DNA of 64,000 bases from an uncultured Muribaculaceae bacterium (GTDB lineage Bacteria; Bacillota_I; Bacilli_A; RF39; UBA660): NCBI GenBank assembly GCA_964493665.1, contig CAZBOZ010000001.1:24591-88590 (forward strand). Direction: 5' to 3'. Made by a program: the position numbers and the translations under genes. The stretch's first letter is position 1, and the number at the start of each line of letters is the position of its first letter. This document shows positions 6,993 through 40,997 of the stretch, piece by piece. The notes beneath the pieces were generated by a model. It did not search any database. It was not told the DNA's origin and saw only the letters and a list, made by a program, of their open reading frames with translations.

Positions 6993-9164
6993 ATGAATTA
7001 TATAAAAGGTAATTTTAGAAGCATTATATTTGAAGGTAATAATGGGTATAAAATAGGTTTATTTAAAATAAAAGAAACCAATGATGAAGAAATGCAAGAT
7101 TTTTTAAATAAAGTAATTACTTTTACTGGTTATTTTACTGATTTAAACAAAGAAGATAAATATCTTTTTTATGGGTCTTTAACTAACCATGAAAGATATG
7201 GTATTCAATATGCTGTGAAAAATTATGAAAAAGTAGTCCCCGAAGGTAAAGAAGCAGTTATTGAATTTTTGTCTTCCTCGTTAATTAAGGGCTGTGGTGA
7301 AAAAACAGCAATTAAAATCGTTGAAACTCTTGGTGAAGAAGCTATTAATAAAATAAAAGAAAATTATCAGAATTTGTTAATTATACCCAGCATAACTGAT
7401 AGCAAAGCTTTGAAAATATATAATTCAATTATGAAATATGCTGCTATAGACGAAATAATTATTCAATTAAAAGAATATGGTTTTAGTACTCCGGAAGTTA
7501 CTAATATTATTAGTATTTATAATGAAAAATCTTTAAATATAGTTAAAGAAAATATTTATTTATTAAAAGAATTAATTTCTTTTGACAAATTAGATAATAT
7601 TTTTATTAAATTTAATGATACTTTAGATAGTGTTAGAATAAAAGCTTGTATATTAGAAGTTATGAATAGATTGACTTTTGTAAATGGTGATACATACCAT
7701 TATTTAAATGAAATTATTAGTGGGTTGAAACAAATGTTTAAAATAATTCTTGAAGAAGATAATTTTAATTATATATTGGAAAGTTTAATAAAAGATAAAT
7801 ATATTATTGTAGATGAAGATAAATATTATTTAAGAGAATTTTATAATATGGAGTTAAATATTAGCAAAAGTTTAATAGAAATAAATGGCAATAAAAAAGC
7901 CAGTTATTCTAAAATAGATTCTATAATTTCTAAAATAGAGGATAAAATTAAATTTGATAAAACTCAAATAGAAGCCATAAAAAAAGCTTTAAATAATAAT
8001 ATAACAATAATTACAGGTGGTCCAGGAACCGGTAAAACAACAATTGTAAAGGCCATATTAAAAGCATTTAATATTTTAAATAACTATAGTGAAGGAGAAA
8101 GTATATTAAATGTGGCATTACTTGCCCCAACTGGTAGAGCTAGCAAAAAATTATCAGAAGTAACAGGTATAGGAGCAATGACTATTCATCGTTTCTTAAA
8201 GTGGTATAAAGAATCAAATACATTTGAATATAATGAAGATAACAAGATATATAAAAAATTAGTTATTATTGATGAAGTTAGTATGATTGATACTTTCTTG
8301 TTTGATTCTTTAATGAAGGGATTAAATCATGATTTAAAGTTAGTTTTAATAGGTGATGAAAACCAATTACCAAGTGTCGGTGGTGGGTTAATCCTAAATG
8401 ATTTGATAGACACAAATATTTTTGATCATATTTTACTTACTAAAATATTTAGACAAAAAAGTGAATCTTTTATACCTTATTTAGCTAAAGAAATAAAAAA
8501 CAGGAAATTAAGTACTGATTATTTTAGCATAAAAGATGACTTTAATTTTATTGAAACTAGCCCTAATAAAATTAAGATGAGTATTGAGAATATTTGTAAA
8601 AGAGGCTTAGAAAAAGGTATAACGGAAAAAGATTTAATAGTTTTGGCTCCCATGTATAAGGGTGAAAATGGCATTGATAATTTAAATGTTGTTTTACAAA
8701 ATTTATATAATGAAAAATCCCCTCATAAAAATGAATTTCATGTTGGCGATGTTACTTTCAGAGAAGGGGACAAAGTAATTCAATTAACTAATGATGTGGA
8801 TCATAATGTTTTTAATGGCGATATAGGATATATATTAGAAATTAATTCTAAAAACAAAGAGGTTTTAATAGTGGATTTTGATGGTAATTTAGTGCCATAC
8901 AAAAAAGAAGATTTAATTCATTTAAAACATGCTTATGCTATATCAGTTCATAAGAGCCAAGGTAGCGAGTTTAATCATGTGATTTTCCCAATCACACCAG
9001 CATTTAGTAAGATGCTTTATAATAAGCTTATTTATACAGGGGTATCTAGAGCTAAAAAAAGTTTAATAATAGTTGGAGATAAGCTATCTTTTGAAAGGGG
9101 AGTTAAGAACAATTATAGTATTAATCGTAAAACCAGCTTAAAAGAAAGGATAAGGGAAATATAA
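6993..9164 (+). CDS. recD2: ATP-dependent RecD-like DNA helicase (RecD2)
   Basis: 723 aa with N-terminal HhH-like regions, Walker A ITGGPGTGKTT, Walker B IIDEVSM and a C-terminal SH3-like helicase domain. Confidence 0.8.
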   Translation: MNYIKGNFRSIIFEGNNGYKIGLFKIKETNDEEMQDFLNKVITFTGYFTDLNKEDKYLFYGSLTNHERYGIQYAVKNYEKVVPEGKEAVIEFLSSSLIKGCGEKTAIKIVETLGEEAINKIKENYQNLLIIPSITDSKALKIYNSIMKYAAIDEIIIQLKEYGFSTPEVTNIISIYNEKSLNIVKENIYLLKELISFDKLDNIFIKFNDTLDSVRIKACILEVMNRLTFVNGDTYHYLNEIISGLKQMFKIILEEDNFNYILESLIKDKYIIVDEDKYYLREFYNMELNISKSLIEINGNKKASYSKIDSIISKIEDKIKFDKTQIEAIKKALNNNITIITGGPGTGKTTIVKAILKAFNILNNYSEGESILNVALLAPTGRASKKLSEVTGIGAMTIHRFLKWYKESNTFEYNEDNKIYKKLVIIDEVSMIDTFLFDSLMKGLNHDLKLVLIGDENQLPSVGGGLILNDLIDTNIFDHILLTKIFRQKSESFIPYLAKEIKNRKLSTDYFSIKDDFNFIETSPNKIKMSIENICKRGLEKGITEKDLIVLAPMYKGENGIDNLNVVLQNLYNEKSPHKNEFHVGDVTFREGDKVIQLTNDVDHNVFNGDIGYILEINSKNKEVLIVDFDGNLVPYKKEDLIHLKHAYAISVHKSQGSEFNHVIFPITPAFSKMLYNKLIYTGVSRAKKSLIIVGDKLSFERGVKNNYSINRKTSLKERIREI

Positions 9165-9235: not shown

Positions 9236-10426
9236 ATGAATAAAAAATTATTAGAGAGTAATAATGAAAATACTAATGAAGTAATGACTTTAACTAGTAA
9301 AATATTAAAGATATTATATTTTGTTATTATTATTGGTATAGTTTATCTTTTAATAAGGATTTTAAAAGAATCAGGAGTTTTTGATTTTTTACTAAAATTT
9401 CTTAAAATATTATCGCCATTATTTGCTGGGTTTATTATAGCTTGGTTATTTAATCCTTTAGTTACTAAATTAAGCAAAAAAGGAATGAGCAGGATTATTT
9501 CTACAGGAATTGTTTATATAGTCTTTTTAGGTTTAATATTTTTATTTTTAAGGCTATTAATTCCTAATTTATCTGATCAGATAAATGATCTCATAAATAC
9601 TATTCCTTCTATTTTTAATGGTATTAATAATTTTATTTCTAAAGTTTTTGATAGCTTTAAAGCCATTGATGGCTTTGATGTCATAAAAGCTAAAGCTGAT
9701 GCCATTTCAACAATTAGTGGATATGCTGCCAATATATCTTCTAATTTGCCCAATATATTAATAAATATTGTCACAGCACTAGTTTCTGGTGTTGGTAAAT
9801 TTATTATAAGTTTAGTAATAGGATTTTATATGCTATTTAATTTTGATAGTACTAATAATCATTTAATGAGCTTATTACCTAAAAAACATCGTTATGAAGC
9901 CAGAATTTTAGTAGGTGAAATAAGCACTCAGTTGCATCGGTATGTAAATGGAGTTTTATTAATAGCAGCTGTTATGTCAGTGGCTTGCTCTATTGGCTTT
10001 TGGATAGCAGGATTGAAAGCTCCATATTTATTTGGGGTATTTTGTGGTATAACAGATATTATTCCTTATGTAGGACCATATATGGGTGGCATACCAGCAG
10101 TATTAGTTGGATTTAGCCAAAGTGCTACAGTTGGTACGGTAACTATCTTTGTAATAATAATTATTCAATTATTAGAAAATTATTTATTACAGCCGGTTAT
10201 TATGAGTAAAACAATGAAACTTCATCCAGTAACTATTATGATTGGTTTAATTTCTTTTGGTTACTTCTTTGGTATATGGGGAATGGTTTTAGCTACACCA
10301 ACCATTGCCTTACTTAAAATATTAGGCAATTATTTTATAAACAAATATAACTTGTTTGATTATGACAATGATCCAACTGAAGTAATTGATGTAAAAGAAA
10401 TTAAAAAAAGGGCTAAAGCAAAATAG
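9236..10426 (+). CDS. AI-2E family transporter (PerM-like)
   Basis: Multi-TM protein of about 400 aa with the AI-2E / UPF0118 topology and conserved C-terminal helices. Confidence 0.7.
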   Translation: MNKKLLESNNENTNEVMTLTSKILKILYFVIIIGIVYLLIRILKESGVFDFLLKFLKILSPLFAGFIIAWLFNPLVTKLSKKGMSRIISTGIVYIVFLGLIFLFLRLLIPNLSDQINDLINTIPSIFNGINNFISKVFDSFKAIDGFDVIKAKADAISTISGYAANISSNLPNILINIVTALVSGVGKFIISLVIGFYMLFNFDSTNNHLMSLLPKKHRYEARILVGEISTQLHRYVNGVLLIAAVMSVACSIGFWIAGLKAPYLFGVFCGITDIIPYVGPYMGGIPAVLVGFSQSATVGTVTIFVIIIIQLLENYLLQPVIMSKTMKLHPVTIMIGLISFGYFFGIWGMVLATPTIALLKILGNYFINKYNLFDYDNDPTEVIDVKEIKKRAKAK

Positions 10427-10434
10427 GTGATAAG

Positions 10435-12210
10435 ATGAAAAAAATAACAAGAGAAGAATTAGTAACAATGTACTTTAACTTTTTTAAGGAAAAAGGACAT
10501 ACTATAATTCCCAGTGCTTCAATAGTACCCGAAAATGATCCAACAGTTTTATTTACTTCAGCTGGTATGCACCCTTTAGTACCATATTTATTGGGAGAAA
10601 GGCATCCTGGTGGGGAAAGATTAGTTAATGTCCAAAAATGTTTAAGAACCGGGGATATCGAATCAGTAGGTGACTCTTCTCATTTGACATTTTTTGAAAT
10701 GTTAGGTAATTGGAGTTTAGGAGATTATTTTAAAAAAGAATCAATTGCTTTTAGTTATGAATTTTTAACTAATCCAAAACATTTAAATTTAGACAAAGAA
10801 AGGCTTTATTTTTCTTGCTTTGAAGGAGATACTGAATTTTCTAAAGATGAAGAAAGCTATAATGCTTGGTTAGATAATGGGGTTGATCCTAGTCACATAT
10901 ATTTTCTTTCTAAAGAAAATAATTTTTGGATATTAGGAAGTGGTATAGGTCCTTGTGGTCCAGATACAGAAATATTTTATGATACTTTAAAGGATCCTTG
11001 CAGCCCAAATTGTAATCCATCATGTTCATGTGGCAAATATTTGGAAATATGGAATAATGTTTTTATGGAATACAACAAAAAAAGTGACGGTTCTATTATT
11101 AAATTAGCAAAACCTAATGTTGATACAGGGATGGGTCTAGAAAGGACTTTAGCAGTATTAAATAATCTATCTTCAGTATATGATACTGAGTTATTTGTTA
11201 ATTTAAAAACGAAAATTGAAGAATTATCTAATAAAAAGTATGAAGATAACTTGGAAGCCTTTAGAATAATAATGGATCATTTAAGATCTGCAGTTTTTGT
11301 TTTAGGAGATTATCATGGTATTGTTCCTTCTAATACCGGCCAAGGCTATGTTTTAAGAAGATTAATTAGAAGAGCTTTTCGTTATCTTAAAAATTTAACA
11401 ATAGAAAATCAAATAAAAGAACTTGTTAGTGTAATTATAAATGATTACAAAAATATTTATCCAGAATTAGCAACCAACAAAGATTTTATAATAAATGAAA
11501 TAATCAAAGAAGGAGAAAAATTTAGTAAAACACTCTCTCAAGGAGAAAAATTATTTAATAAAGTTATTAAACAGTCTAAAAACAATCTAATAAGTGGTAC
11601 TGATGCTTTTAAATTATTTGATACTTTTGGCTTTCCTTTGGAAATGACTATTGAACTTGCTAATGAAAGTGGATTTAAAGTGGATAGTGAAGAGTTTTAT
11701 AATAAATTTAAAGAACACCAAGAAAAAAGCAAAACTATTGATGCTGGGGCTTTTAAGGGTGGTTTAGCTGATGATAGTTATGAAACTACTAAATATCATA
11801 CTTTAGCACATTTAATGCTTGCAGCTTTACAAAAAATGTATGGCAAAGACATAGTTCAAAAAGGCTGTAATATAACTAGTGAAAGAATTAGATTTGATTT
11901 TAATTTGGATCATAAAATGAGTGAAGAAGAAAAGTTAGAACTAACTAAATTAGTAAATGAATATATAAAAATGAATATAGATGTTTCTTGTGATGAAATG
12001 AGTTATGAAAATGCTAAAAAAGAAGGAGCTCATGGTACTTTTGAAGATAAGTATGGTGGAGTTGTAAAAGTATATACTATTGGAGATGTATCAAAAGAAA
12101 TATGTGGTGGCCCTCATGTTAAAAATACCTTTGAAATAGGGGAGTTTATTATAACTAAAGAAGAATCATCCAGTGCTGGAGTTAGAAGGATAAAAGCTAT
12201 TATTAAATAG
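10435..12210 (+). CDS. alaS: alanine--tRNA ligase, short form lacking the C-Ala domain
   Basis: Class II catalytic core (FTSAGM, motif 2/3 region), a tRNA-recognition domain, and editing-site motifs HTLAHLM and CGGPH. It ends at 591 aa directly after AGVRRIKAIIK. Confidence 0.8.
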   Translation: MKKITREELVTMYFNFFKEKGHTIIPSASIVPENDPTVLFTSAGMHPLVPYLLGERHPGGERLVNVQKCLRTGDIESVGDSSHLTFFEMLGNWSLGDYFKKESIAFSYEFLTNPKHLNLDKERLYFSCFEGDTEFSKDEESYNAWLDNGVDPSHIYFLSKENNFWILGSGIGPCGPDTEIFYDTLKDPCSPNCNPSCSCGKYLEIWNNVFMEYNKKSDGSIIKLAKPNVDTGMGLERTLAVLNNLSSVYDTELFVNLKTKIEELSNKKYEDNLEAFRIIMDHLRSAVFVLGDYHGIVPSNTGQGYVLRRLIRRAFRYLKNLTIENQIKELVSVIINDYKNIYPELATNKDFIINEIIKEGEKFSKTLSQGEKLFNKVIKQSKNNLISGTDAFKLFDTFGFPLEMTIELANESGFKVDSEEFYNKFKEHQEKSKTIDAGAFKGGLADDSYETTKYHTLAHLMLAALQKMYGKDIVQKGCNITSERIRFDFNLDHKMSEEEKLELTKLVNEYIKMNIDVSCDEMSYENAKKEGAHGTFEDKYGGVVKVYTIGDVSKEICGGPHVKNTFEIGEFIITKEESSSAGVRRIKAIIK

Positions 12211-12253: not shown

Positions 12254-12427
12254 ATGGCAGTAAATAAACCTGTTGGTGATAATGCTAGAGTGGGTGCAGT
12301 AAAAGATAGAAGCCAAACTTATAATCCAAAAACCAAAAAAATAGTCAAACGAAACACCAAAACTGGTGAGTTTATCAAAAATAAAATAACAAAAGGTATA
12401 TTTAAAGGTATAAGAAAAGAAAAATAA
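12254..12427 (+). CDS. small basic protein (57 aa), conserved-hypothetical-like
   Basis: ATG preceded by the RBS aaggag. It translates to MAVNKPVGDNARVGAVKDRSQTYNPKTKKIVKRNTKTGEFIKNKITKGIFKGIRKEK and is followed by a terminator. It is not in the ORF track because it is shorter than 60 aa. Confidence 0.45.
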   Translation: MAVNKPVGDNARVGAVKDRSQTYNPKTKKIVKRNTKTGEFIKNKITKGIFKGIRKEK

Positions 12428-12452
12428 CTTCAGAAGAAGTTATTTTATTTTT
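12426..12452. terminator. bidirectional rho-independent terminator candidate
   Basis: Hairpin aacttcagaagaagtt followed by a T-run, between the convergent small ORF and ORF 12440-13303. Confidence 0.45.
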
Positions 12453-19174: not shown

Positions 19175-19933
19175 ATGAAAAAATTGATTAATTTTAATTT
19201 AACGATGGGGGTTATTCATTTTATACAAGGAGTTACAATGCTTATTTTAGCTCTTACAGTAAGTAAAATAATGGATTTTAAACCAATAATATATACATCT
19301 TTTTTAAAATTTGATTATACTTCTATGAGCCTAGTAACAAATTTTAAAGAAGTCTTTGCTTTGCCATTTGCTTTACTAGTAAGCTGCTTTTTATTTTTAT
19401 CAGCCTTATTTCATTTTATGATAATTGTTTTTCATAAAAAATATGCAGAAGATTTGAATAAAAATATAAATAAGTTTAGATGGTATGAATATGCATTATC
19501 TTCTTCATTAATGATAGTTTTAATAGCAGTATTATTTGGGGTTTATGATTTAGGAGCTCTAATATTAATATTTGCGTTAAATGCCACCATGAATTTATTT
19601 GGCTTGCTAATGGAAAAAATGAATCAAGGTAAATCAAAACCCGATTGGACTCCATTTTTGTTTGGATCGTTTGCTGGCATTATTCCTTGGGTAGTAATTA
19701 TTATGTTTGCCTTTGGGAATTCTGATCCTTCATCAGTCCCATGGTTTGTCTATGCTATTTTTGGCTCATACTTTATCTTTTTCAACTTATTTCCAATCAA
19801 TATGATTTTACAATATAAAAAGATAGGTAAGTGGAAAGATTATCTTTACGGAGAAAAATGGTACATCATATTAAGTCTATCAGCTAAAACGGTATTGGCT
19901 TGGTTAGTCTTTTTTGGAGTAATGCAACCATAA
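19175..19933 (+). CDS. heliorhodopsin-like 7-TM retinal protein
   Basis: 252 aa with 7 predicted TM helices and a Lys in helix 7 (LSLSAKTVLAW). Blocks LSALFHF, FRWYEYALSSSLMIVLIA, FGSFAGIIPW and QYKKIGKW match my recollection of heliorhodopsin family motifs. Confidence 0.7.
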   Translation: MKKLINFNLTMGVIHFIQGVTMLILALTVSKIMDFKPIIYTSFLKFDYTSMSLVTNFKEVFALPFALLVSCFLFLSALFHFMIIVFHKKYAEDLNKNINKFRWYEYALSSSLMIVLIAVLFGVYDLGALILIFALNATMNLFGLLMEKMNQGKSKPDWTPFLFGSFAGIIPWVVIIMFAFGNSDPSSVPWFVYAIFGSYFIFFNLFPINMILQYKKIGKWKDYLYGEKWYIILSLSAKTVLAWLVFFGVMQP

Positions 19934-20841: not shown

Positions 20842-21099
20842 GTGAATACTATGGATAAAACAATGATGTTTAATATTAAAGAAATCGAAGAAGCTTATAT
20901 CCATGAAACTTTGCTTGAAGTATATGATGCTTTAAAAGAAAGAGGATATAATCCAACTAACCAATTAGTAGGATATTTAATTAGTGGTGATCCAGGATAT
21001 ATTTCTAGCTATAAAAATTCTCGAAACAAAATATGTAAACTTGATAGAGTAGAAATATTAGAAATACTAGTTAATGGCTATATGAAAAATAAAAAATGA
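20842..21099 (+). CDS. ireB: IreB family regulatory phosphoprotein (UPF0297)
   Basis: GYNPTNQLVGYLISGDPGYISSYKNSRN matches the UPF0297 core. It lies upstream of ruvX as in Bacilli. Confidence 0.75.
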   Translation: MNTMDKTMMFNIKEIEEAYIHETLLEVYDALKERGYNPTNQLVGYLISGDPGYISSYKNSRNKICKLDRVEILEILVNGYMKNKK

Positions 21100-21506
21100 G
21101 AATATTAGGTTTAGATTTAGGAACCAAAACACTTGGACTAGCAATAAGTGATCGTCTTGGTTTGATTGCTAATCCTTATAAAACTATAAAATTTAACAAT
21201 AAAGAAGAACTGCTAATTAGTTTAGACGAAATTATAAATAAGGAGCAAATTACTAAAATTGTTTTAGGCAATCCGAAAAACATGAATAATTCTGAAACAA
21301 TTGCTTCTAAAAGATCAATTGATTTTAAAAACATTATAGAAAAAAGGTATAATTTAGAAGTTGTATTAGTAGATGAAAGATTATCTACACAAGAAGCTGA
21401 AAAAATACTTATTTCTGGTGATATGAGCCGTTCTAAAAGAAAAAATGTAATAGATAAAATGGCTGCTACAATAATACTTGCTAATTATTTAAATAGAAAA
21501 AGGTGA
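21096..21506 (+). CDS. ruvX: Holliday junction resolvase-like RuvX (YqgF)
   Basis: MRILGLDLGTKTLGLAISD RNase H-like N-terminus. Confidence 0.85.
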   Translation: MRILGLDLGTKTLGLAISDRLGLIANPYKTIKFNNKEELLISLDEIINKEQITKIVLGNPKNMNNSETIASKRSIDFKNIIEKRYNLEVVLVDERLSTQEAEKILISGDMSRSKRKNVIDKMAATIILANYLNRKR

Positions 21507-21510
21507 AACA

Positions 21511-21810
21511 ATGGAAGAAACCAAAAAAAACACGTTTCAAGTTATAAACGATGAAGGCAAAGAAGTAACTTGTGAAATACTGTTTACATTTGACTCTGAT
21601 GAAACTAAAAAAAGTTATATTGCTTATACCGATAACACTTTAGATGAGGTTGGTAATGTTAAGGTATATGCTTCAATATATGATAAAAATGGTGAATCAA
21701 AAGAACTGTTGCCAATTGAGAGTGAAAAAGAATGGCAAATAATTGAAAATATATTTAGTAAACTACAAGATAAAGTGGCTGAAACAGAGGAAGAGGACAC
21801 TGAAAATTAA
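21511..21810 (+). CDS. DUF1292 family protein (YrzB-like)
   Basis: The EILFTFDSDETKKSYIAYTD block and its conserved position after ruvX. Confidence 0.7.
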   Translation: MEETKKNTFQVINDEGKEVTCEILFTFDSDETKKSYIAYTDNTLDEVGNVKVYASIYDKNGESKELLPIESEKEWQIIENIFSKLQDKVAETEEEDTEN

Positions 21811-21812
21811 AT

Positions 21813-22859
21813 ATGAAAAAGATAGTTTTAAAGTTAACGATTCTTTTTTTATCTATAGGGATAATAGCTGTTGCTATCTTTTTATTTTTGCTTGGCCCAG
21901 TAGATAAAAATGGTAAAGCAATATATTTTAAAGTCGAGACGGGCAGTGCCACTAGAGAAGTTTTAAAGAATCTAAAAGAGAAAAATTTAATAAAAAGTGA
22001 ATTTGCATCTTTATTGTATGCTAAGATTCATCCTAATTATACAATTAAAGCCGGTACCTTTTCTTTATCTCCAGCTTATAGCACAGAAAAAATTTTTCAA
22101 CTCCTAAATGCTGGTGATACTATTGAAAAAGAAGGTGTAAATATAACTTTTGTTGAAGGTAAAAGACTTAGCTATTATGTTGATTTAATTAGTGATACCT
22201 TTAGCTATGAAAAAGAAGAAATATACAATGTTTTAAGTGATGAAGAATATTTACAAAGTCTTATAGATGATTATTGGTTTATAACCGATGAAATATTAGA
22301 TTCTAAGTTATATTATCCTTTGGAGGGTTATTTATACCCAGAAACATATAATTTTGCGACTGATTCAAGCATAAAAACGATTATTAATAAATTGATTTAC
22401 ACATTGGGTGAAAATCTAGAGCCTTATAAAGAGGAAATAGAAAATAGTAAATTTACTTTCCATCAAATACTATCATTAGCAAGTGATGTTGAAATAGAAG
22501 GAAATAATGAAACAGACCGTAAACTAATTGCTGGAGTCTTTTTAAGTAGACTAAGATTAGGTATGCAATTAGGTAGTGATGTTACTACTTACTATGCGGT
22601 AAAAAAAGATTTAAGTGAAAAACTATGGTATTATGATATAAGCTATGTTAGTGATTATAACACAAGGCTTACTAGTATGGCTGGTAAAATCAATATTGGC
22701 CCAATATGTAATCCTTCAATCATGTCTATAAAAGCCATATTGAATCCAACTAATAGTGACTATTTATATTTTTATGCAGATTGGCAAGGCGATGGCAAAG
22801 TATATTATAGTAAAACATATCAAGAACATTCAGCCATTGTTGCCAGTTTTGAAAGGTAG
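21813..22859 (+). CDS. mltG: endolytic murein transglycosylase MltG (YceG-like)
   Basis: N-terminal TM helix, a YceG domain with LASDVEIEGNNETDRKLIAGVF, and Bacilli synteny. Confidence 0.8.
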   Translation: MKKIVLKLTILFLSIGIIAVAIFLFLLGPVDKNGKAIYFKVETGSATREVLKNLKEKNLIKSEFASLLYAKIHPNYTIKAGTFSLSPAYSTEKIFQLLNAGDTIEKEGVNITFVEGKRLSYYVDLISDTFSYEKEEIYNVLSDEEYLQSLIDDYWFITDEILDSKLYYPLEGYLYPETYNFATDSSIKTIINKLIYTLGENLEPYKEEIENSKFTFHQILSLASDVEIEGNNETDRKLIAGVFLSRLRLGMQLGSDVTTYYAVKKDLSEKLWYYDISYVSDYNTRLTSMAGKINIGPICNPSIMSIKAILNPTNSDYLYFYADWQGDGKVYYSKTYQEHSAIVASFER

Positions 22860-22866
22860 ATGAAAA

Positions 22867-23454
22867 ATGAAAGAAATTTTAATGGAAATAGAAGATTATG
22901 CTAAAAATCACAATGTGCCAATAATTGCTAAAGACTCTATTGCTTTTATAATGAAATATATTAAATTAAATAAAATAAAAGAGATTTTAGAATTAGGCTC
23001 AGCAATTGGTTATTCGGCTATATTAATGGCTAGCGCTGATCCTGATACCAAAGTAACAACTATTGAAAAAAATGAAAATAGATATTTAGAATGTTTAAAT
23101 AATATAAAAAAGTGTAAGCTTGAAACAAAAATAAATGTGGTTTTTCAAGATGCTTTAGATTTAAATTTAATTGGTGTATCATATGATTTGATTTTTATTG
23201 ATGCTGCGAAAAGCGATTATCTTAAATTATTTGAAAAATATAAGTATTTTTTAAAACCAGGTGGGGTAATAATAACTGATAATATTAATTTTCATGGTTA
23301 TGTTGGTAATCAAAAAAACATTCAAGATGAAAATTTAAAAAGAATTGTTTCCAAAATAGAAGAATATATTGATTTTTTAGAAAATAATTCTGAATATAAA
23401 ACTGAATTTTTCCGTAATATTGGCGATGGTTTATCAATAAGTACCAAAAAATAA
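22867..23454 (+). CDS. class I SAM-dependent O-methyltransferase (YrrM/TrmR-like)
   Basis: ILELGSAIGYSA motif I and FIDAAK motif. It follows mltG as yrrM does in B. subtilis. Confidence 0.7.
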   Translation: MKEILMEIEDYAKNHNVPIIAKDSIAFIMKYIKLNKIKEILELGSAIGYSAILMASADPDTKVTTIEKNENRYLECLNNIKKCKLETKINVVFQDALDLNLIGVSYDLIFIDAAKSDYLKLFEKYKYFLKPGGVIITDNINFHGYVGNQKNIQDENLKRIVSKIEEYIDFLENNSEYKTEFFRNIGDGLSISTKK

Positions 23455-23543
23455 TAGGATTTTCCCATAATACAAAATGATTGACTTTTTAAGTGAAATA
23501 TAGTATTCTTAACTAGTTGATTTTTTATTGAGGTGAATTAAAA

Positions 23544-24014
23544 ATGACAGAAAAAAAAGAAATCTTCTTAACCCCTGAAGGGTTTTTAGAAATTGAAAAT
23601 GAATTAACTGATTTAAAGTTAAATAAACGTCCAGAAGTTATTCAGGCTTTACAAGAAGCTAGGGCTCTTGGCGACTTATCAGAAAATGCTGACTATGATG
23701 CAGCTCGTAATGAACAAGCAAAATTAGAAGCTAGAATAAAAGAACTAGATTATATGTTGGAACATGCCAAAATTGCCGAAAATCATAATACTAATACAGT
23801 TACAGTAGGTACTACTGTAACTATTGATTATGTTGATGATTCTGAATCAGTTGAATATAAAGTAGTAGGATCTTTAGAGGCCGATCCATTTAATAATAAA
23901 ATATCTAATGAATCACCAATAGGAAGTGCTATTATGAATCGTAAAGTTGGCGATGTTATATCGGTAGATAGTCCTAATGGTGCTTATAAAGTAAAGATTA
24001 CTAAAATCGCTTAA
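23544..24014 (+). CDS. greA: transcription elongation factor GreA
   Basis: Coiled-coil N-terminus with the acidic DLSENADYDAA tip, and a C-terminal FKBP-like domain. Confidence 0.9.
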   Translation: MTEKKEIFLTPEGFLEIENELTDLKLNKRPEVIQALQEARALGDLSENADYDAARNEQAKLEARIKELDYMLEHAKIAENHNTNTVTVGTTVTIDYVDDSESVEYKVVGSLEADPFNNKISNESPIGSAIMNRKVGDVISVDSPNGAYKVKITKIA

Positions 24015-27818: not shown

Positions 27819-30686
27819 ATGAAAGAAAAAAAGGGTTTTGCTTTAGTTGAATCTATTTTTATGATAGTGTTTCTTTCTGTGGCACTTCTTTTAGTATATA
27901 AAGCTTTTGCTTCTTCTTTTCAAGACGAAAGAAGAAGAATAAAATATGATAATACTACAAGTATTTATGAATTATATTTTATTAAACAATACTTTGAAGA
28001 AAATGGTATTTTAGATTATTTAACCACTGCTACTTTAACTGATGGGTATTTGGAAATAAATTGTTCTACAATAACCTCTAATAATAGTGAATATTGTGAT
28101 TTTTTAACATCATTTGATAGTTTTGATGTTAATAAAATATATATCACTAAATATGATATGGATGGAGTAGCATATGATAATTTAGATCCAACCACCATTG
28201 ATTATTTTAAAACTTTATCAGGCACGGATACAATTTCATATAGAATTATTGTTTGGTTTAATAATGACCAGTATGCTAGTATGAAATTAGGTGTTCCATA
28301 CCATAATTTACTTGTTTTATTAAATGGTGGTACTTGGACAGGGACTAATAGTCAAACTCTCATAGAAGGTGAAACAACAAATATTTTAAATCCTGTGAAA
28401 GATGGTTATATATTTTTAGGTTGGAGCATAAACGGAGCGGGCAGCAGTGTAGTTGATACTACTTTTACAATGGGGACTGAAGATACAATTATAGTTGCAA
28501 CCTGGATGGATTATTCGGTAATTTATACTTACACAGGAGATTATCAGACGTTTTCTATACCATTAACCGGCTATTATCAACTAGAAGTTTGGGGAGCCGA
28601 GGGAGGAAGTTACGATCCAACTCTAGGTCAACAAAAAGGAGCATATGCTAGTGGTTATATTAGTTTAAACAAAGATGATGTAATATATATTTATGTTGGA
28701 GGAGCAGGCACTACTAATGGGAATGGGACTACCATTCCTGGAGGGTTTAATGGTGGTGGCACTGCTTTGGGTTATAGTGATTCAAATAATGGTTCCGGGG
28801 GTGGAGCTACTGATATTAGATTAGATACTAGCTTGAACTCAAGAATATTAATAGCGGCCGGCGGTGGTGGCACAGTAGGACCAACAGTTGCTAGCGGAAA
28901 TTATGGGGGGTCTTTAATAGCAACAAATGCTGTTTGGACAGCAGGCAGTACATATACTGCTACAGGCGGAACACAAATTAGTGCTGGCGGTGGTACTGTA
29001 AGTGGAGCATTTGGTCAAGGAGCTAATGGTGGGACAACATATCGTGCTGGCGGTGGCGGTGGATATTATGGTGGTGGGGTTCATACATATACTGGTGCTG
29101 GGGGGTCCTCATTTATAAGTGGGTATGCTGGATCTAATGCTATAACAAGTTCATCATCTACTACGGCCACAAACAATACAATTCATTATAGTAATAATTA
29201 TTTTATCAATGGTTCTATGGCAACTAGTGTAAATTCTGGAAATGGCTATGCCAAAATAACGTTTATTGGAGAAGAAGCTCCAACTAGAATAAACACTAAT
29301 TTAAATAATGTAAGATACATAAAAGATTGCGTAAACGGTAATACTACTGATACTACAGCTTCTTGGGTGGAGTTACAAGCAATATATCAAGGGATAAATG
29401 TTGCCAAAGGCAAAACTGTAACAGGAACATCAGCTCAGAATGCTAGTTATCCTTATACAAGAATAGTGGATGGCGATATAACGCCAGCTAATTTTGCTAT
29501 TTCATCAGTAAACGGTGCACAATGTGTGACGGTAGATCTTGGGCAAACATATAATTTAGATGAAGTAGCTGTATGGCATTATTGGCTAGATGGCAGAACT
29601 GTATATAGCAATGTAACGTCAGTATCAAATGACAATTCTAGCTGGTCTACAGCAATCAGTTCTTTATATGCTGAAAATAGTCAAGGCAAAAGAATAAATG
29701 CTTATCAAAATGATTATCCATATACAGGGGCAGTTCAAACATTTACAGTGCCATATACTGGCAATTATAAAATTGAATTATGGGGAGCCAGTGGTGGTAA
29801 TGGTAGTGCAACATACACTGGCGGTATGGGCGGCTATACAAAAGGTGAAATATATTTAACAAAAGATACCGATTTATATATATATGTTGGTGGGGTTGGG
29901 CCAGCAGTAGGAACTGCAACGAACACAGCTGGTGGATATAACGGTGGTGGTAATTGCTACTCTTATGCAGCAAATTATGTTACAGGATGTGGTGGCGGAG
30001 CAACAGATATTAGAACTACATCAGGTGTATGGAACAATTCCACATCACTTGCTTCAAGAATCATGGTAGCTGGTGGTGGTGGTGGTGGCCATTATCGTTC
30101 TGATACTTCAAGCAAAGGTGGCCAAGGTGGTGGGTTAACCGGAAATATATCTTATGGCGAAACCTCGGCTTATGGCAAACTATATCCAACTGGCGGATCT
30201 CAAACTGCTGGTGGTGCAAAAGGCTATGTAGACGCTTCTTCAAGGATAACTTCTTTAACAGATTCTGGATTTGGCTATGGTGGTTCAGTTAATGCCTCCG
30301 CATTAACATGGAACCTTATAGGTGGCGGAAGTGGCTATTGGGGTGGTGGAGCCGGAGTATTTATGGCTGGATCTGCGGGTTCGTCATATATTAGTGGCCA
30401 TACGGGTTGTATAGCAATAACTTCATCATCAAGCACATCGCCAAGAACAGGAACAGCAGGGGCACCATGTTCACAAGGCGGAACAGATAATTTATGTAGC
30501 ATTCATTATAGTGGCAATTATTTTACGAACACTTTAATGATAGATGGTGCTGACTACACTTGGACAAATATTAAAGCCTCTAAAGTTGGAACAAATGCTA
30601 TGCCACGACCAAATGGAGGCAGTTATCAGCCTGGATATGGTAACACTGGTAATGGTTATGCCAAAATAACTTATATTGGTAACTAA
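27819..30686 (+). CDS. giant prepilin-type modular surface protein (pilin-like N-terminus, Listeria-Bacteroides repeat, 2 Gly-rich modules, discoidin-like domain)
   Basis: KKGFALVESIFMIVFLSV is a class III signal peptide with the G-F-x-x-x-E motif. DGYIFLGWSINGAG...TIIVATW is a flg_new-like repeat. Two paralogous modules of about 250-320 aa run from YTGxxQTF..WGAxGG to GNGYAKIT(F/Y)IG. VDLGQTYNLDEVAVWHYW is F5/8 type C-like. Confidence 0.6.
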   Translation: MKEKKGFALVESIFMIVFLSVALLLVYKAFASSFQDERRRIKYDNTTSIYELYFIKQYFEENGILDYLTTATLTDGYLEINCSTITSNNSEYCDFLTSFDSFDVNKIYITKYDMDGVAYDNLDPTTIDYFKTLSGTDTISYRIIVWFNNDQYASMKLGVPYHNLLVLLNGGTWTGTNSQTLIEGETTNILNPVKDGYIFLGWSINGAGSSVVDTTFTMGTEDTIIVATWMDYSVIYTYTGDYQTFSIPLTGYYQLEVWGAEGGSYDPTLGQQKGAYASGYISLNKDDVIYIYVGGAGTTNGNGTTIPGGFNGGGTALGYSDSNNGSGGGATDIRLDTSLNSRILIAAGGGGTVGPTVASGNYGGSLIATNAVWTAGSTYTATGGTQISAGGGTVSGAFGQGANGGTTYRAGGGGGYYGGGVHTYTGAGGSSFISGYAGSNAITSSSSTTATNNTIHYSNNYFINGSMATSVNSGNGYAKITFIGEEAPTRINTNLNNVRYIKDCVNGNTTDTTASWVELQAIYQGINVAKGKTVTGTSAQNASYPYTRIVDGDITPANFAISSVNGAQCVTVDLGQTYNLDEVAVWHYWLDGRTVYSNVTSVSNDNSSWSTAISSLYAENSQGKRINAYQNDYPYTGAVQTFTVPYTGNYKIELWGASGGNGSATYTGGMGGYTKGEIYLTKDTDLYIYVGGVGPAVGTATNTAGGYNGGGNCYSYAANYVTGCGGGATDIRTTSGVWNNSTSLASRIMVAGGGGGGHYRSDTSSKGGQGGGLTGNISYGETSAYGKLYPTGGSQTAGGAKGYVDASSRITSLTDSGFGYGGSVNASALTWNLIGGGSGYWGGGAGVFMAGSAGSSYISGHTGCIAITSSSSTSPRTGTAGAPCSQGGTDNLCSIHYSGNYFTNTLMIDGADYTWTNIKASKVGTNAMPRPNGGSYQPGYGNTGNGYAKITYIGN
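28527..29276 (+). repeat. internal Gly-rich module copy 1 (intragenic duplication)
   Basis: Protein-level repeat from YTYTGDYQTFSIPLTGYYQLEVWGAEGG to GNGYAKITFIGEE. The terminal about 30 nt are also near-identical to copy 2 at the DNA level. Confidence 0.6.
29718..30686 (+). repeat. internal Gly-rich module copy 2
   Basis: Runs from YPYTGAVQTFTVPYTGNYKIELWGASGG to GNGYAKITYIGN, with the same order of Gly runs, DIR motif and NYF motif as copy 1. Confidence 0.6.
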
Positions 30687-37829: not shown

Positions 37830-38606
37830 ATGGATAGATTAGGCGAGTTATTACAAGAATTAGGAATATCCAAAGTTAGATTAGCTAAATATTTAGGCGT
37901 ATCTAGACAAATGGTTTATAATTATTTAGAAATGGATAGTATAAATAAATGGCCAAAAGAAAAGAAAATTTTATTTTTTAAGTTATTAAATATTGAAGAT
38001 GGTGATGACACCACTATTAAAGCAATAAAAGTAAATGCTGATTATTTAATGGAAGTAGAAAGTAGATTAAATCAAGGAGTAAAAGATCTATCTGATTTAG
38101 ATAACTATTTTGATTTTAATGGCCTTAAAAAAGAAGAACAAGAATTAATAGCTGATATTACATATTTATTAAAAGAAAAATTATTAGATGAGAAAAAAGG
38201 AGCTGAAAATTTTCAAGCCTTAACATATTTATATCATTTGTTGCAAGCGTATGAAAATGTTCCAGAAATTAAGTATATTTTTGGTTATATGTCAAAAGCT
38301 ACAGGATTTACTAATCCCAATACTTTTGCTTTTAATGAAGATAAACAATTTATATTTGAAGGAATATTATATTCAGCCTTAACCCTATACAATAGTGGGG
38401 GAACAAGCAAGAGTAAGTTAATTGATTCACATAAAAGATTTGTTCAAGAGATAGAACAAAGGAATGAAGAAAAACTAACCCGTACTCAACAATTAAGCAC
38501 TTTAAGAATTCAAGCTTTAAAAGAGCTTAATTATACTAAAATAGACGAATCTAATGCTGCCGAGATATTTGAAAAGATGGCAGAGATAGAGTCTAGGAAA
38601 GTATAA
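37830..38606 (+). CDS. XRE-type helix-turn-helix domain protein with a long C-terminal domain
   Basis: N-terminal ISKVRLAKYLGVSRQMVYNYL HTH. The C-terminal 200 aa are uncharacterised. Confidence 0.55.
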   Translation: MDRLGELLQELGISKVRLAKYLGVSRQMVYNYLEMDSINKWPKEKKILFFKLLNIEDGDDTTIKAIKVNADYLMEVESRLNQGVKDLSDLDNYFDFNGLKKEEQELIADITYLLKEKLLDEKKGAENFQALTYLYHLLQAYENVPEIKYIFGYMSKATGFTNPNTFAFNEDKQFIFEGILYSALTLYNSGGTSKSKLIDSHKRFVQEIEQRNEEKLTRTQQLSTLRIQALKELNYTKIDESNAAEIFEKMAEIESRKV

Positions 38607-38670
38607 TAAATAACAGCATATAATATATATTATGTTAACCAAAGTTAATTTAATGTAATAAAATATAAAG

Positions 38671-38710
38671 AAAAAAGAACTAAATAAATATAATAATTAT
38701 TAGTTCTTTT
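38671..38710. terminator. inverted repeat / bidirectional terminator candidate between convergent genes
   Basis: aaaagaactaa ... ttagttctttt 11-bp arms around a 16-nt AT loop. Confidence 0.35.
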
Positions 38711-38761
38711 TATATAACTTATTATAAAAATATAATGAAAATATTATTAAATAAAAATAAA

Positions 38762-39664
38762 TTAATTATCTAAATGACTATGTGGATGATATTCTTCATA
38801 GTCTTTTTTTAACTGTTCATTTACTAAATGAGCATATATTTGAGTAGTAGTTATATCACTATGACCAAGTAACTCTTGAATTATACGCAAATCTGCCCCA
38901 TTTTGAAGTAGGTGGGTAGCGAAAGTGTGTCTAATAATATGTGGCGATATATCTTTCTTAATACCTTTTTTAAGACATTCTAATTTAATAAATTTAAATA
39001 TTGATTGGCGACTTAAAGATTTTCCATAACGATTTATAAAAATAAATTCCGTATTTTTGTCTTTTAAAATAATTGGTCTATATTTATATATATATTCTTC
39101 TAAATGTTTTTTAGCTTCATCAGTAATAGGTATAATTCTTTCTTTGCTCCCCTTCCCCATAACTCTAACTAGGTCTTCTTTAAAATCAATATTATTTATT
39201 TTAAGGTTAACTAATTCACTAATTCTAATACCTGTAGCATATAAAAGCTCTAAAATAGCTTTATTACGATAATCATAAGGATTTTTACATTCAATATCTA
39301 ATAATTTAGTTATTTCTTCAATAGTTAAATAAACTGGTAATAATTTATCTTTTTTGGGCATTTTAAGACTTATACAAGGACTTTTTGCTAGTAATCCATC
39401 GCTTACTAGAAAATTATAAAAACTCTTTAATACAGTTATTTTATGAGTAATAGATGTTACTTTAATATTTTTAGTTTCTTTTTGGATATAATTTTTAATA
39501 TTATCAGTAGTAATATCTAATATATTTTGGTTTTTAAAATACATTTGAAATAACTTTAATTCATACATATAACTATCTATAGTATTATTTGAATACTTAC
39601 ATTCATATTTCAAATAATCTAAATATTTTAATATTAAAGGATCATAATTAAATGTTTTCTTCAT
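38762..39664 (-). CDS. tyrosine recombinase, XerC/XerD family
   Basis: C-terminal catalytic box HIIRHTFATHLL...LGHSDITTTQIYAHL with R..H..R..Y. 300 aa with an N-terminal SAM-like core-binding domain. Confidence 0.8.
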   Translation of the reverse strand: MKKTFNYDPLILKYLDYLKYECKYSNNTIDSYMYELKLFQMYFKNQNILDITTDNIKNYIQKETKNIKVTSITHKITVLKSFYNFLVSDGLLAKSPCISLKMPKKDKLLPVYLTIEEITKLLDIECKNPYDYRNKAILELLYATGIRISELVNLKINNIDFKEDLVRVMGKGSKERIIPITDEAKKHLEEYIYKYRPIILKDKNTEFIFINRYGKSLSRQSIFKFIKLECLKKGIKKDISPHIIRHTFATHLLQNGADLRIIQELLGHSDITTTQIYAHLVNEQLKKDYEEYHPHSHLDN

Positions 39665-39773
39665 ATTTATCTACTCCATTTATATTATACCATTTTATTT
39701 ATAAAAAATAAACGAACATTTATTTGCCATCTTGTTTTTATATGTTATAATAATTATGGATGTGATAATAATT

Positions 39774-40970
39774 ATGGAATTACTAGCTAATATATTAAAA
39801 CCAACTAAATTAAAAGATGTTATAGGCCAAGAACATTTAATAGGTCCTAATAAAATACTTAGTACTTTAATTAAAGAAAATAAGATGTTTTCCATTATTT
39901 TATATGGTAAACCTGGCATAGGTAAAACTAGTATAGCAAATGCTATAGTAAATGAATTAAATAAACCATATCGATTTTTAAATGCTGTAATTAATAATAA
40001 ACAAGATTTTGATATTGTCATAGAAGAAGCTAAAATGGAAGGTGAAATGTTACTTGTTATAGATGAATTACATCGTATGAATAAAGATAAACAAGATTTA
40101 CTCCTACCCTATATTGAAAATGGTTTAATTATTTTAATTGGATTAACTACTGCTAATCCATATCATAAAATAAATCCTGCAATTAGAAGTAGATGTCAAA
40201 TATTTGAATTACATGAATTAACTACTCTTGATATTAAAAAAGGTCTTAAAAAGGCTTTAAAAAGCCTTAAAGAAGTTAAAATAGATGAAGATTCACTCAA
40301 CTTTATTACCATTAGTTCTTCAGGAGACTTTAGAAGTGCTTTAAACTTACTTGAAATGGCTTATTATGCTAGTAAAGATCATAACATTAATATTACTTTA
40401 TTAGAAAGTATTCATGCTAAAAAAGTGTTTTATCATGATAAAGATCAAGATGGTCATTATGATGTCTTAAGTGCTTTTCAAAAATCAATTAGAGGTAGTG
40501 ATGTTGATGCTTCTCTACACTATTTAGCAAGACTTATTGAAGCCGAAGATTTAGACAGTATTTATAGAAGAATGACAGCATGTGCCTATGAAGACATAGG
40601 CCTTGCAAATCCTGGTATGGGGCCTAAAGTAATGGCTGCTATAGAGGCATCTGAATTATTAGGGCTTCCTGAAGCTAGGCTTCCTTTAGCAGTAGTAGTT
40701 ACTGAACTTGCTTTATCTCCTAAAAGTAATAGTGCTTATTTAGGTATAGATAAAGCTCAAAGTGATATTAGAAAAGGTAGTACAGGAAATGTTCCAGATC
40801 ATTTAAAAAATCCTAGTTCTACCTATAAATATCCTCATGATTATCCAAAATATTATATCAAACAACAATACTTACCAGATTTAATTAAAGACCATAAATA
40901 TTATCAAGCTAAGAATAATAAATATGAAGAAAACCTAGTAAAAATAAATAATGAAATGAAAAAAGACTAA
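39774..40970 (+). CDS. rarA: replication-associated recombination protein A (RarA/MgsA AAA+ ATPase)
   Basis: Start moved to the internal ATG MELLANILKPTKLKDVIGQEHL. Walker A GKPGIGKTS, Walker B LLVIDELHR, and the MgsA C-terminal helical domain. Confidence 0.85.
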   Translation: MELLANILKPTKLKDVIGQEHLIGPNKILSTLIKENKMFSIILYGKPGIGKTSIANAIVNELNKPYRFLNAVINNKQDFDIVIEEAKMEGEMLLVIDELHRMNKDKQDLLLPYIENGLIILIGLTTANPYHKINPAIRSRCQIFELHELTTLDIKKGLKKALKSLKEVKIDEDSLNFITISSSGDFRSALNLLEMAYYASKDHNINITLLESIHAKKVFYHDKDQDGHYDVLSAFQKSIRGSDVDASLHYLARLIEAEDLDSIYRRMTACAYEDIGLANPGMGPKVMAAIEASELLGLPEARLPLAVVVTELALSPKSNSAYLGIDKAQSDIRKGSTGNVPDHLKNPSSTYKYPHDYPKYYIKQQYLPDLIKDHKYYQAKNNKYEENLVKINNEMKKD

Positions 40971-40997
40971 TTAATTATTAGTCTTTATTTTTTTTAA
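40961..40997 (+). terminator. rho-independent terminator
   Basis: agactaat taatt attagtct hairpin overlapping the rarA stop, followed by a run of about 10 T. Confidence 0.6.

Follow-up and report, generated by a model that had tools for sequence, protein, structure and literature searches.

A short-form alanyl-tRNA synthetase without C-Ala in a Bacilli genome is a member of a catalogued prokaryotic family

The 64-kb window (the whole stretch of DNA that was analysed) carries a short alaS gene at positions 10435 to 12210 of the forward strand. It was identified from the ORF, Pfam and the NF002436 profile, runs from ATG to TAA and encodes an alanyl-tRNA synthetase (AlaRS) of 591 aa; an NCBI protein with 100% identity to it exists. 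A Shine-Dalgarno-like AGGTGA (10425 to 10430, forward strand), read from the sequence and probably functional, lies 4 nt upstream of the ATG and overlaps the TAG stop of a gene for an AI-2E family transporter (9236 to 10426, forward strand; Pfam). The alaS ATG stands 8 nt past the end of this gene and the next downstream ORF starts at 12254, in agreement with the tight packing described in an earlier sequence-only reading of this DNA. The transporter gene is probably co-transcribed with alaS, and the order of the two is kept in an 82%-identical relative (GCA_035379765.1). The downstream ORF (12254 to 12427, forward strand; from the ORF list) has its own AAGGAG, encodes a very basic protein of 57 aa (pI 10.7) and is found at the equal position in the same relative with 91% identity. 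A putative bidirectional terminator (12423 to 12449), read from the sequence, lies between the 57-aa ORF and a convergent phospholipase C-like gene. It consists of a 9-bp AT-rich hairpin, AATAACTTC-AGAA-GAAGTTATT, followed by a T-run. With fewer than 3 GC pairs, it was not called by the consensus terminator scan.

On a larger scale, a recD2-type helicase gene (YrrC; 6993 to 9164) served as upstream synteny marker, and the block ireB-ruvX-DUF1292-mltG-O-methyltransferase-greA (20842 to 24014) follows downstream, all on the forward strand and assigned with Pfam. The canonical alaS of Listeria has the same surroundings, with a recD2 homologue upstream and the ireB-to-greA genes after it, and no canonical alaS adjoins ireB in the window. 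This synteny with the ancestral Bacilli alaS neighbourhood argues that the short gene is the housekeeping copy. The GC3 of the short alaS (14%) is close to that of the neighbouring recD2 (15.5%), indicating a host-like composition in a genome that is AT-rich (27% GC) and gene-dense. The window also contains dtd, encoding a D-aminoacyl-tRNA deacylase (DTD), on the reverse strand (43157 to 43591; PF02580, E=4e-55).

An alignment to the 876-aa AlaRS of E. coli showed which parts of the enzyme are present. Residues 1-437 (10435 to 11745) align to E. coli residues 1-437 with 38% identity and form the aminoacylation domain, that is, the class II catalytic core with the helical tRNA-recognition domain, as supported by PDB matches to AlaRS catalytic fragments (E=3e-95), conservation and the structural model. 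Residues 455-591 (11797 to 12207) form an AlaX-S-like editing core, identified with tRNA_SAD, the AlaXM profile (positions 90-231) and Foldseek, and residues 455-589 align to E. coli 564-698 with 41% identity. The two parts are joined by a linker of residues 438-454 (11746 to 11796), seen as a gap in the E. coli alignment and in the model, in place of the canonical beta-barrel of about 110 aa. Pfam accordingly detected tRNA-synt_2c (PF01411) at 9-437 and tRNA_SAD (PF07973) at 544-586, and no DHHA1/C-Ala domain in the 591-aa protein. With respect to the E. coli enzyme, about 110 aa are missing that correspond to the N-terminal beta-barrel half of the editing domain (E. coli about 450-560), and about 175 aa that correspond to the helical linker and C-Ala. 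Barrel probes gave no match to the 591-aa protein, and the model has the 17-residue linker at that place. From the canonical AlaRS set (TIGR00344) the protein thus retains the catalytic and tRNA-recognition domain with the G3:U70 readers, and lacks both the full editing domain and the helical linker with C-Ala.

The sequence-only reading had described intact catalytic and tRNA-recognition domains, retained HxxxH and CGGPH motifs and an end just after AGVRRI, and all of this was seen in the ORF, Pfam and E. coli alignments: the zinc motifs are HTLAH at residues 455-459 (11797 to 11811) and CGGPH at 557-561 (12103 to 12117), and the C terminus reads ...AGVRRIKAIIK. It had also placed a loss in the editing domain in addition to that of C-Ala. 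Both losses are real, but the missing part is the beta-barrel at the N-terminal end of the editing domain and not its C-terminal end.

Residue conservation was scored over 63 representatives of short-form AlaRS. The catalytic residues R71, W165, N207, D230, G232 and G234 and the editing residues H455, H459, Q475, C557 and H561 were invariant (63/63). R585 was arginine in 62 of the 63 and R584, which is equivalent to the G3:U70-reading R693 of the E. coli editing core, in 58. The G3:U70 readers of the aminoacylation domain, N300 and D396, are kept as well. Within the linker a motif F-K-G-G-L-A-D (residues 440-446; 11752 to 11772) is conserved in the short family, with F in 57, the two G in 55 and 58, and L in 55 of the representatives. 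Two other candidate signatures, a 4-residue deletion relative to E. coli G-K-H-N (73-76) and a Cys cluster (C189/C193/C197/C199), were also frequent in canonical AlaRS, so neither is diagnostic of the short family. In an AF2 model searched with Foldseek, the N-terminal part resembled the AlaRS catalytic fragments 3hxu and 9jdn (TM about 0.8), and the editing core superposed on AlaX-S (1wnu) with a TM of 0.85 and an rmsd of 1.7 A over 147 columns. The pLDDT was below 50 at residues 429-446, and parts of the catalytic domain were also of low confidence. By model and residue conservation the editing core is whole: its fold is AlaX-S-like, and none of the known zinc and catalytic residues is missing.

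These features can be set beside known enzymes. Canonical AlaRS (E. coli AlaS, 876 aa; Listeria AlaS, 879 aa) has the aminoacylation and tRNA-recognition domain in common with the short form at 38-42% identity, and all catalytic residues, N300/D396, HxxxH, CxxxH, Q and RR are kept, whereas the beta-barrel, the helical linker and the DHHA1-like C-Ala are missing. In canonical AlaRS, C-Ala contacts the elbow of the tRNA and is responsible for oligomerisation. The whole of AlaX-S (P. horikoshii PH0574; 1wnu, 1v4p) superposes on the C-terminal 140 residues, with a match in sequence and the same zinc motifs; AlaX-S is free-standing, whereas in the short AlaRS a single ORF encodes this module together with the aminoacylation domain, in cis. 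AlaX-M (TM 0.53) and the canonical editing domain, in contrast, have the extra N-terminal beta-barrel.

Profile analysis assigned the protein to an already catalogued family of short AlaRS that many gut microbes possess; the gene is real but not new. It scored 853 bits with the NCBIfam model NF002436 (PRK01584, an 'alanine--tRNA ligase' equivalog; cutoff 529), residues 5-590 aligning end to end with positions 2-592 of 595. No architectural difference from this family was seen, and the score is slightly below the 900-916 bits reached by members from a plasmid, an archaeal MAG and a 6.4-Mb genome (Anaerocolumna among these members). The protein has the short-form architecture of about 590-600 aa with the aminoacylation domain and editing core only. 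The 120 closest homologues were all 581-627 aa long, as were the more than 100 with 67-83% identity, and every homologue found had the same pair PF01411 and PF07973. At 80 species loci alaS was of essentially equal length; the exceptions came from the choice of start codon and from one gene that is split. Genomes of at least 80 species encode this architecture, among them Clostridia of up to 6.4 Mb and Methanomassiliicoccales archaea, and it is also found on two Bacillales plasmids; host genomes include sizes of 2.4-6.4 Mb. Complete genomes with a member of the family include those of Christensenellaceae (OY762936.1, OY776633.1, OY762290.1 and OY771363.1) and Anaerocolumna (NZ_CP133190.1). A lead for comparison is the AlaRS of Borrelia and Treponema, which is probably about 594-605 aa long and probably the sole AlaRS of those genomes.

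Based on these results we consider it likely that the gene is the working AlaRS of the organism, as a member of NF002436/PRK01584. Alanine--tRNA ligase activity is predicted, as implied by the equivalog model and the conservation of all active-site residues. Within the 64-kb window, tblastn with E. coli probes (genetic codes 11 and 4) found no second AlaRS, AlaX or C-Ala, and the short alaS is probably the housekeeping enzyme and sole AlaRS of the genome. It would then be a long-standing chromosomal gene in the ancestral alaS surroundings of Bacilli, and this small, AT-rich Bacilli genome most likely has no other alaS. The enzyme would activate alanine and charge tRNAAla via the acceptor stem, with G3:U70 read by N300 and D396, and would not have to touch the tRNA elbow. 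Since oligomerisation and binding of the elbow are the tasks of C-Ala, the enzyme is probably monomeric. The tethered editing core would hydrolyse Ser-tRNAAla and perhaps Gly-tRNAAla, as its own G3:U70 reader R584 is kept. DTD is known to act in the clearance of Gly-tRNAAla, and the DTD encoded in the window is a possible back-up for this task.

Charging by the acceptor stem alone has precedents, since the Tupanvirus mini-AlaRS and the N453 fragment of A. aeolicus AlaRS charge tRNAAla efficiently without C-Ala (PMC10036535). Natural reductions of C-Ala have been described in the mitochondrial AlaRS of C. elegans, which has a residual C-Ala, in the Tupanvirus enzyme and in the split AlaRS of N. 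equitans, and they too show that recognition of the acceptor stem can be enough (PMC8887476, PMC10036535). The C. elegans enzyme (CeAlaRSm) serves T-arm-less tRNAs, whereas in 8 other genomes that have tRNAAla genes next to short alaS, these tRNAs are of the canonical type: they have G3:U70, their D-loop contains GG and their T-loop is standard. The Tupanvirus enzyme (TuAlaRS) lacks the editing domain, C-Ala and the N/D readers, whereas the AlaRS studied here keeps editing and the N/D readers. The short family is prokaryotic and widespread. When C-Ala is deleted from the AlaRS of E. coli or of A. fulgidus, activity falls sharply (PMC8887476); this effect and the accessory family copies found elsewhere are points against the reading as the working AlaRS.

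Such accessory copies bring up the alternative that the short enzyme is a paralogue, with a canonical alaS elsewhere in the genome. Possible roles would be an inhibitor-insensitive AlaRS for self-resistance, or the supply of Ala-tRNA for secondary metabolites, like AcmD in ascamycin. In the ascamycin cluster AcmD is an AlaRS homologue and AcmF a truncated AlaRS-like transferase (PMC12945691), and this precedent is resembled, by gene arrangement, by the plasmid copies of Exiguobacterium and Peribacillus, which adjoin an AcmF-like 'AlaRS-related protein' of about 385 aa in biosynthetic-looking clusters. The same clusters hold genes for AsnA, an ATP-grasp protein, a methyltransferase, an MFS protein and an MccF-like S66 peptidase. 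With 54-55% identity, these plasmid-encoded AlaRS belong to the nearest neighbours of the AlaRS in the window, and the copies in the large genomes of Shimazuella, C. yunnanense and Anaerocolumna also stand in non-housekeeping contexts. The gene in the window, however, has neither partner nor cluster: its neighbours are recD2, the AI-2E transporter gene, the 57-aa ORF and the PLC-like gene, and an AcmF-like partner was found at 0 of 80 chromosomal loci. The ancestral neighbourhood with no canonical alaS by ireB, the fully host-like composition and the close relatives that keep both position and length further oppose a paralogue, and two AlaRS genes would be unexpected in a small AT-rich genome. 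We therefore regard this alternative as unlikely.

A broader proposal on the origin of the family is that it represents a horizontally mobile 'resistance-type' AlaRS with its origin or its maintenance in gene clusters for aminoacyl-nucleoside antibiotics, of which the Exiguobacterium and Peribacillus plasmid clusters with their AcmF-like protein and MccF-like S66 peptidase would be examples. Several gut lineages, among them this Bacilli genome and the Methanomassiliicoccales, would later have exchanged their canonical enzyme for it, and it would now act there as the sole, monomeric AlaRS on ordinary L-shaped tRNAAla, with need of neither C-Ala nor the beta-barrel. We put this forward as a distinctly improbable scenario; if true, it would parallel the spread of the mupirocin-resistant IleRS2.

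The sequence-only reading had favoured streamlining of this genome, in which the lineage trimmed its own canonical alaS and editing was weakened or moved to a trans factor. The AT-rich, gene-dense genome and the ancestral position of alaS are in line with such a reduction. It finds no support, however, because the architecture is that of a curated family present in large genomes, archaea and plasmids. To classify architectures, 155 sequences were used (the 150 nearest 50%-identity cluster representatives and five added references), and the short form made up 70 of these and 67 of the 150 representatives. The same architecture and linker motif recur in more than 60 diverse 50%-identity clusters. 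The 66 canonical AlaRS grouped as one pure clade when a neighbour-joining tree was built, with every short form outside it. The AlaRS in the window had a median identity of 46% to short forms versus 40% to canonical ones (42.5% to Listeria). Nor does the sequence call for editing that is reduced or complemented in trans, as the editing core is complete with its zinc and catalytic residues. Stand-alone genes for a beta-barrel, C-Ala or AlaX were absent within 10 kb on either side of 82 short-alaS loci. Taken as a whole, a lineage-specific reduction is very improbable. As a separate matter, the 57-aa basic ORF was considered as a family-wide trans substitute for C-Ala and rejected, being kept in the closest relatives only and absent at all other loci.

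An assembly error or decay that left a truncated or frameshifted alaS, suggested by the unusual length only, has next to no probability given the clean ORF with a ribosome-binding site, the end-to-end NF002436 match, the equal length in hundreds of independent assemblies, the downstream space taken by the conserved 57-aa ORF and the convergent gene, and the lack of any C-Ala-like coding downstream in any frame (tblastn with E. coli probes for the beta-barrel and for C-Ala, codes 11 and 4, 64 kb), a result that also agrees with the sequence-only view that the gene is not truncated by error.

As a correctly sized member of a modelled and named family, the protein should be annotated as alanine--tRNA ligase (short form) and not as truncated. 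For the window itself this is of small importance, the family having already been modelled and named by NCBI. There is a wider point that is modest but real. Recent AlaRS papers describe a four-domain 'prototype' conserved throughout biology, and the only exceptions they name are one enzyme of nematode mitochondria, one of a giant virus and the split enzyme of N. equitans (PMC8887476, PMC10036535). In the AlaRS literature searched we found no mention of a prokaryotic short family without C-Ala and no biochemical characterisation of any NF002436 member, and searches on PRK01584, BB0220, Borrelia AlaRS and Methanomassiliicoccales AlaRS returned nothing relevant. The sequence databases nevertheless hold a large prokaryotic AlaRS family that lacks C-Ala and the editing beta-barrel. 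The short form is probably the sole AlaRS in some small-genome gut bacteria, and is also plasmid-borne in biosynthetic-looking clusters. It bears on how far C-Ala is needed for charging and editing of L-shaped tRNAAla.

Additionally, T-box control of the short alaS was considered and found no supporting evidence. The core motif was missing at all 81 loci, and an Rfam gathering scan of the window returned a 6S RNA and an L21 leader only, with no T-box. The 64-kb window contains no tRNA genes. One 'phage-borne' short AlaRS was encountered in an UNVERIFIED record (MT835476.1); its neighbours (TrkA, a sigma factor, a SpoU methylase, Ppx/GppA and an ABC-F protein) identify it as bacterial DNA, and the phage reading was dismissed.

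The short alaS gene lies at 10435..12210 on the plus strand of the window and runs from ATG to TAA, encoding exactly the 591 amino acids that a sequence-only reading had described. Its tight packing was also borne out: an AGGTGA motif 4 nt 5' of the ATG overlaps the stop codon of an AI-2E transporter gene, and the next ORF starts 43 nt after the alaS stop. A tblastn search with E. coli and Listeria probes, using genetic codes 11 and 4, found no frameshifted continuation past 12210 and no coding for the beta-barrel or C-Ala 3' of alaS or elsewhere in the 64 kb, and tblastn detected no second AlaRS or AlaX in the window. The space 3' of alaS is taken by a 57-aa basic ORF and a convergent phospholipase C-like gene; this occupied space and the lack of any C-Ala or beta-barrel remnant in 64 kb rule out an artefact. 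The 57-aa ORF (12254-12427, plus strand; pI 10.7, 13 Lys and 4 Arg), directly 3' of alaS, has its own AAGGAG motif and is better conserved than AlaRS, since it is 91% identical to the copy of the closest relative and AlaRS is 82% identical in the same pair. Neither Pfam nor NCBIfam gave a match for it, and the 80 more distant loci contained no homologue.

Pfam analysis assigned residues 9-437 of the protein to tRNA-synt_2c and 544-586 to tRNA_SAD, with no DHHA1/C-Ala domain. In a PDB sequence search the protein matched catalytic fragments of AlaRS (E ~1e-95), and residues 453-576 matched the free-standing editing protein AlaX-S. When aligned to E. coli AlaS (from NC_000913), window residues 1-437 covered E. 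coli 1-437 with 38% identity and residues 455-589 covered 564-698 with 41% identity. In comparison to the E. coli enzyme, the protein thus lacks about 450-560, the beta-barrel subdomain forming the N-terminal half of the editing domain, and 700-876, the helical linker and C-Ala. The absence of C-Ala was therefore as first read. The editing domain is indeed partly missing; however, the gap precedes the HxxxH motif and does not follow the AGVRRI segment, where it had been placed. The AlphaFold2 model (mean pLDDT 75.5) consisted of the aminoacylation domain, a helical tRNA-recognition domain, a disordered linker (429-446) and a compact alpha/beta editing core (449-590). With Foldseek the modelled core superposed on the entire P. 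horikoshii AlaX-S (1wnu; TM 0.85, rmsd 1.7 A), whereas it covered only half of AlaX-M.

Next to this, 63 short-form and 66 canonical (four-domain) sequences were aligned to determine residue conservation; the set was made up of the nearest cluster representatives, the window protein, the copies from two plasmids and the enzymes of E. coli and Listeria. The catalytic residues R71, W165, N207, D230, G232 and G234 were invariant in 63/63 short forms, in agreement with the intact catalytic domain noted earlier. The editing residues H455, H459, Q475, C557 and H561 were likewise invariant, and arginine was found at R585 in 62 and at R584 in 58 of the 63. N300 (E. coli N303) was conserved. At D396, equivalent to E. 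coli D400, one of the two readers of G3:U70, the window protein has D, as do 62/66 canonical enzymes, whereas in the short family D, E and Q occur in 17 sequences each. With this variation, the short family may contact the acceptor stem somewhat differently. A linker motif, F-K-G-G-L-A-D (residues 440-446), was found family-wide.

The 595-position 'alanine--tRNA ligase' equivalog NF002436 (PRK01584) fits the protein end to end with 853 bits (cutoff 529). More than 100 clusters with 67-83% identity, all of 581-627 aa, share both Pfam domains of the window protein, and any name given to them reads alanine--tRNA ligase [Bacilli bacterium] or [Bacillota bacterium]; the homologues of this length and the end-to-end match agree with the earlier view that the gene was not truncated by error. 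With an identical NCBI protein also present in a large protein database, the gene is already catalogued and is itself no discovery.

With each GTDB species represented by one genome, a scan gave 80 loci with 53-65% identity and an essentially constant gene length (584-625 aa in 69 of 75 ORF calls); the other calls reflected start-codon choices and one split gene. The bacterial hosts were Christensenellaceae (chromosomes 2.4-3.7 Mb), Oscillospiraceae, other Clostridia, Bacilli MAGs, Shimazuella soli, Clostridium yunnanense, Anaerocolumna sp. (6.4 Mb), gut Alphaproteobacteria and one Spirochaetaceae MAG, and the archaeal hosts were Methanomassiliicoccales. The archaeal-MAG, plasmid and Anaerocolumna copies scored 900-916 bits on NF002436. 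Bacterial-type short AlaRS in Methanomassiliicoccales/Thermoplasmata MAGs (loci L010, L011, L016, L019, L028, L029, L052-L054 and L072; 54-56% identical to the window protein, L016 with 900 bits) implies inter-domain transfer.

When 1.84 billion cluster representatives were searched exhaustively with HMMER, the 150 nearest 50%-identity clusters were obtained. Together with the window protein, two plasmid copies and the E. coli and Listeria enzymes, these were classified with E. coli and Listeria domain probes; 70 of the 155 had the short architecture (67 of them representatives) and 68 were canonical. In a neighbour-joining tree (575 shared columns) 66/66 canonical sequences formed one pure clade. 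The median identity of the window AlaRS was 46% to short forms and 40% to canonical ones (Listeria 42.5%). From this distribution, classification and tree we infer that the short architecture is a distinct, old and widespread lineage and not a truncation by the source genome. Streamlining, as proposed in the sequence-only reading, does not fit the same architecture in 80 loci, in genomes of up to 6.4 Mb, in archaea and on plasmids, with the canonical clade separate in the tree. The earlier observation was thus confirmed and its interpretation partly supported.

The family is clearly an extra copy in other organisms, which speaks for the window gene being a secondary copy as well. Short alaS is carried on plasmids of the Bacillales Exiguobacterium sp. 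Helios (NZ_CP053558.1, 73620-93395) and Peribacillus psychrosaccharolyticus (NZ_CP068052.1, 34392-54173); the Shimazuella copy adjoins PvcA-like and methyltransferase genes, the C. yunnanense copy is flanked by EamA transporter and ECF sigma genes, and the Anaerocolumna copy precedes a sodium:alanine symporter. Both plasmids have, beside short alaS, a ~385-aa 'AlaRS-related protein', asparagine synthetase A (AsnA), a SAM methyltransferase, an ATP-grasp enzyme, an MFS transporter and an S66 (MccF-like) peptidase, and the Exiguobacterium locus additionally a glycosyltransferase. The pairing of short AlaRS with the related protein is similar to AcmD/AcmF of the ascamycin cluster (PMC12945691), and the plasmid loci look like an uncharacterised aminoacyl-nucleoside-type biosynthetic cluster, by analogy. 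However, the AlaRS-related partner was found in 0/80 chromosomal loci and is absent from the window, which holds ordinary chromosomal genes (pepF, dnaJ, U32 peptidase, mtaB, recD2, murC, mltG, greA, tig, lon, mutS, xseA, mnmA, rarA, 6S RNA, aspS, dtd, relA, queA, helD, gatB, gatA). The locus is also syntenic with that of canonical alaS in Listeria (recD2 ... alaS - ireB - ruvX - DUF1292 - mltG - O-methyltransferase - udk - greA): the window has recD2 - AI-2E - short alaS, about 8.6 kb of other genes, and ireB - ruvX - DUF1292 - mltG - O-methyltransferase - greA, with no canonical alaS beside ireB. The order is the same in the 82%-identical relative GCA_035379765.1, and the GC3 of alaS (14%) is near that of recD2 (15.5%). 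It is improbable that the window gene is a secondary copy, and the 64-kb window gives fairly strong, indirect support for short alaS as the housekeeping AlaRS.

Directly 5' of short alaS, two relatives have genes of 174-179 aa with weak DNMK/phosphomevalonate-kinase-like matches (L086 2819-3358, L088 7476-8000), L002 has a 174-aa ORF (9474-9998) and the Exiguobacterium plasmid a dTMP-kinase-like gene (L082 8342-8983). The window lacks this small gene; there alaS directly follows the AI-2E transporter gene.

Because C-Ala is missing, the enzyme would be expected to be a monomer and to read tRNAAla via the acceptor stem only. Such charging is efficient in the Tupanvirus mini-AlaRS and the A. aeolicus N453 fragment (PMC10036535). 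Deletion of C-Ala from E. coli, A. fulgidus or C. elegans cytoplasmic AlaRS sharply lowers activity (PMC8887476), and the short family must therefore compensate somehow. The editing core, present in cis, is AlaX-S-like and has retained the counterpart of E. coli arginine R693; re-binding and clearance of Ser-tRNAAla therefore probably proceed much as in a free AlaX. The dtd gene (43157-43591, minus strand) could assist against Gly-tRNAAla, a role that the literature ascribes to dtd.

Of 17 tRNA genes lying no more than 10 kb from short alaS at 60 loci, 8 were tRNA-Ala, an apparent enrichment (L019 6601-6674, L029 15586-15660, L036 7732-7807, L043 7693-7768, L052 9016-9091, L053 11871-11946, L057 682-757, L058 2400-2475). 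In L019, a Thermoplasmata archaeon MAG, only ~90 nt separate the gene from the alaS stop. G3:U70, a normal D-loop with GG and a normal T-loop are common to all eight. As tRNAAla beside short alaS is canonical in these eight other genomes, C-Ala loss does not appear to go together with elbow-less tRNAs as it does in nematode mitochondria.

In the AlaRS papers examined (among them PMC8887476 and PMC10036535) the four-domain prototype is described as conserved 'throughout biology', with only nematode mitochondrial, Tupanvirus and N. equitans enzymes named as exceptions. Our literature search found no biochemical work on the short family, which is under-studied.

The window also holds a heliorhodopsin gene (19175-19933, plus strand; NF038020 HeR, E=1e-91) on this AT-rich Bacilli chromosome; the 82%-identical relative has one at the equivalent position (L086, from 12652). 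A 955-aa protein (27819-30686, plus strand) combines an ALK/LTK-type glycine-rich domain (PF12810, E=7e-85) with a Listeria-Bacteroides repeat and had no NCBIfam match; its region is the sole GC-elevated stretch in the window (33-37% vs ~26%). Around 38000-41200 GC skew turns from positive to negative and gene orientation from plus to minus, and this switch at ~40 kb looks like a replication terminus. Beside it are an XerC/D-type tyrosine recombinase (38762-39664, minus strand), rarA (39732-40970) and 6S RNA (41001-41181, minus strand). The queA ORF (49296-50999, minus strand) encodes 567 aa, of which QueA models (~345 aa) match residues 14-352 only; the C-terminal ~215 residues are unassigned and may stem from a fusion, from an extension or from the way the ORF was called.
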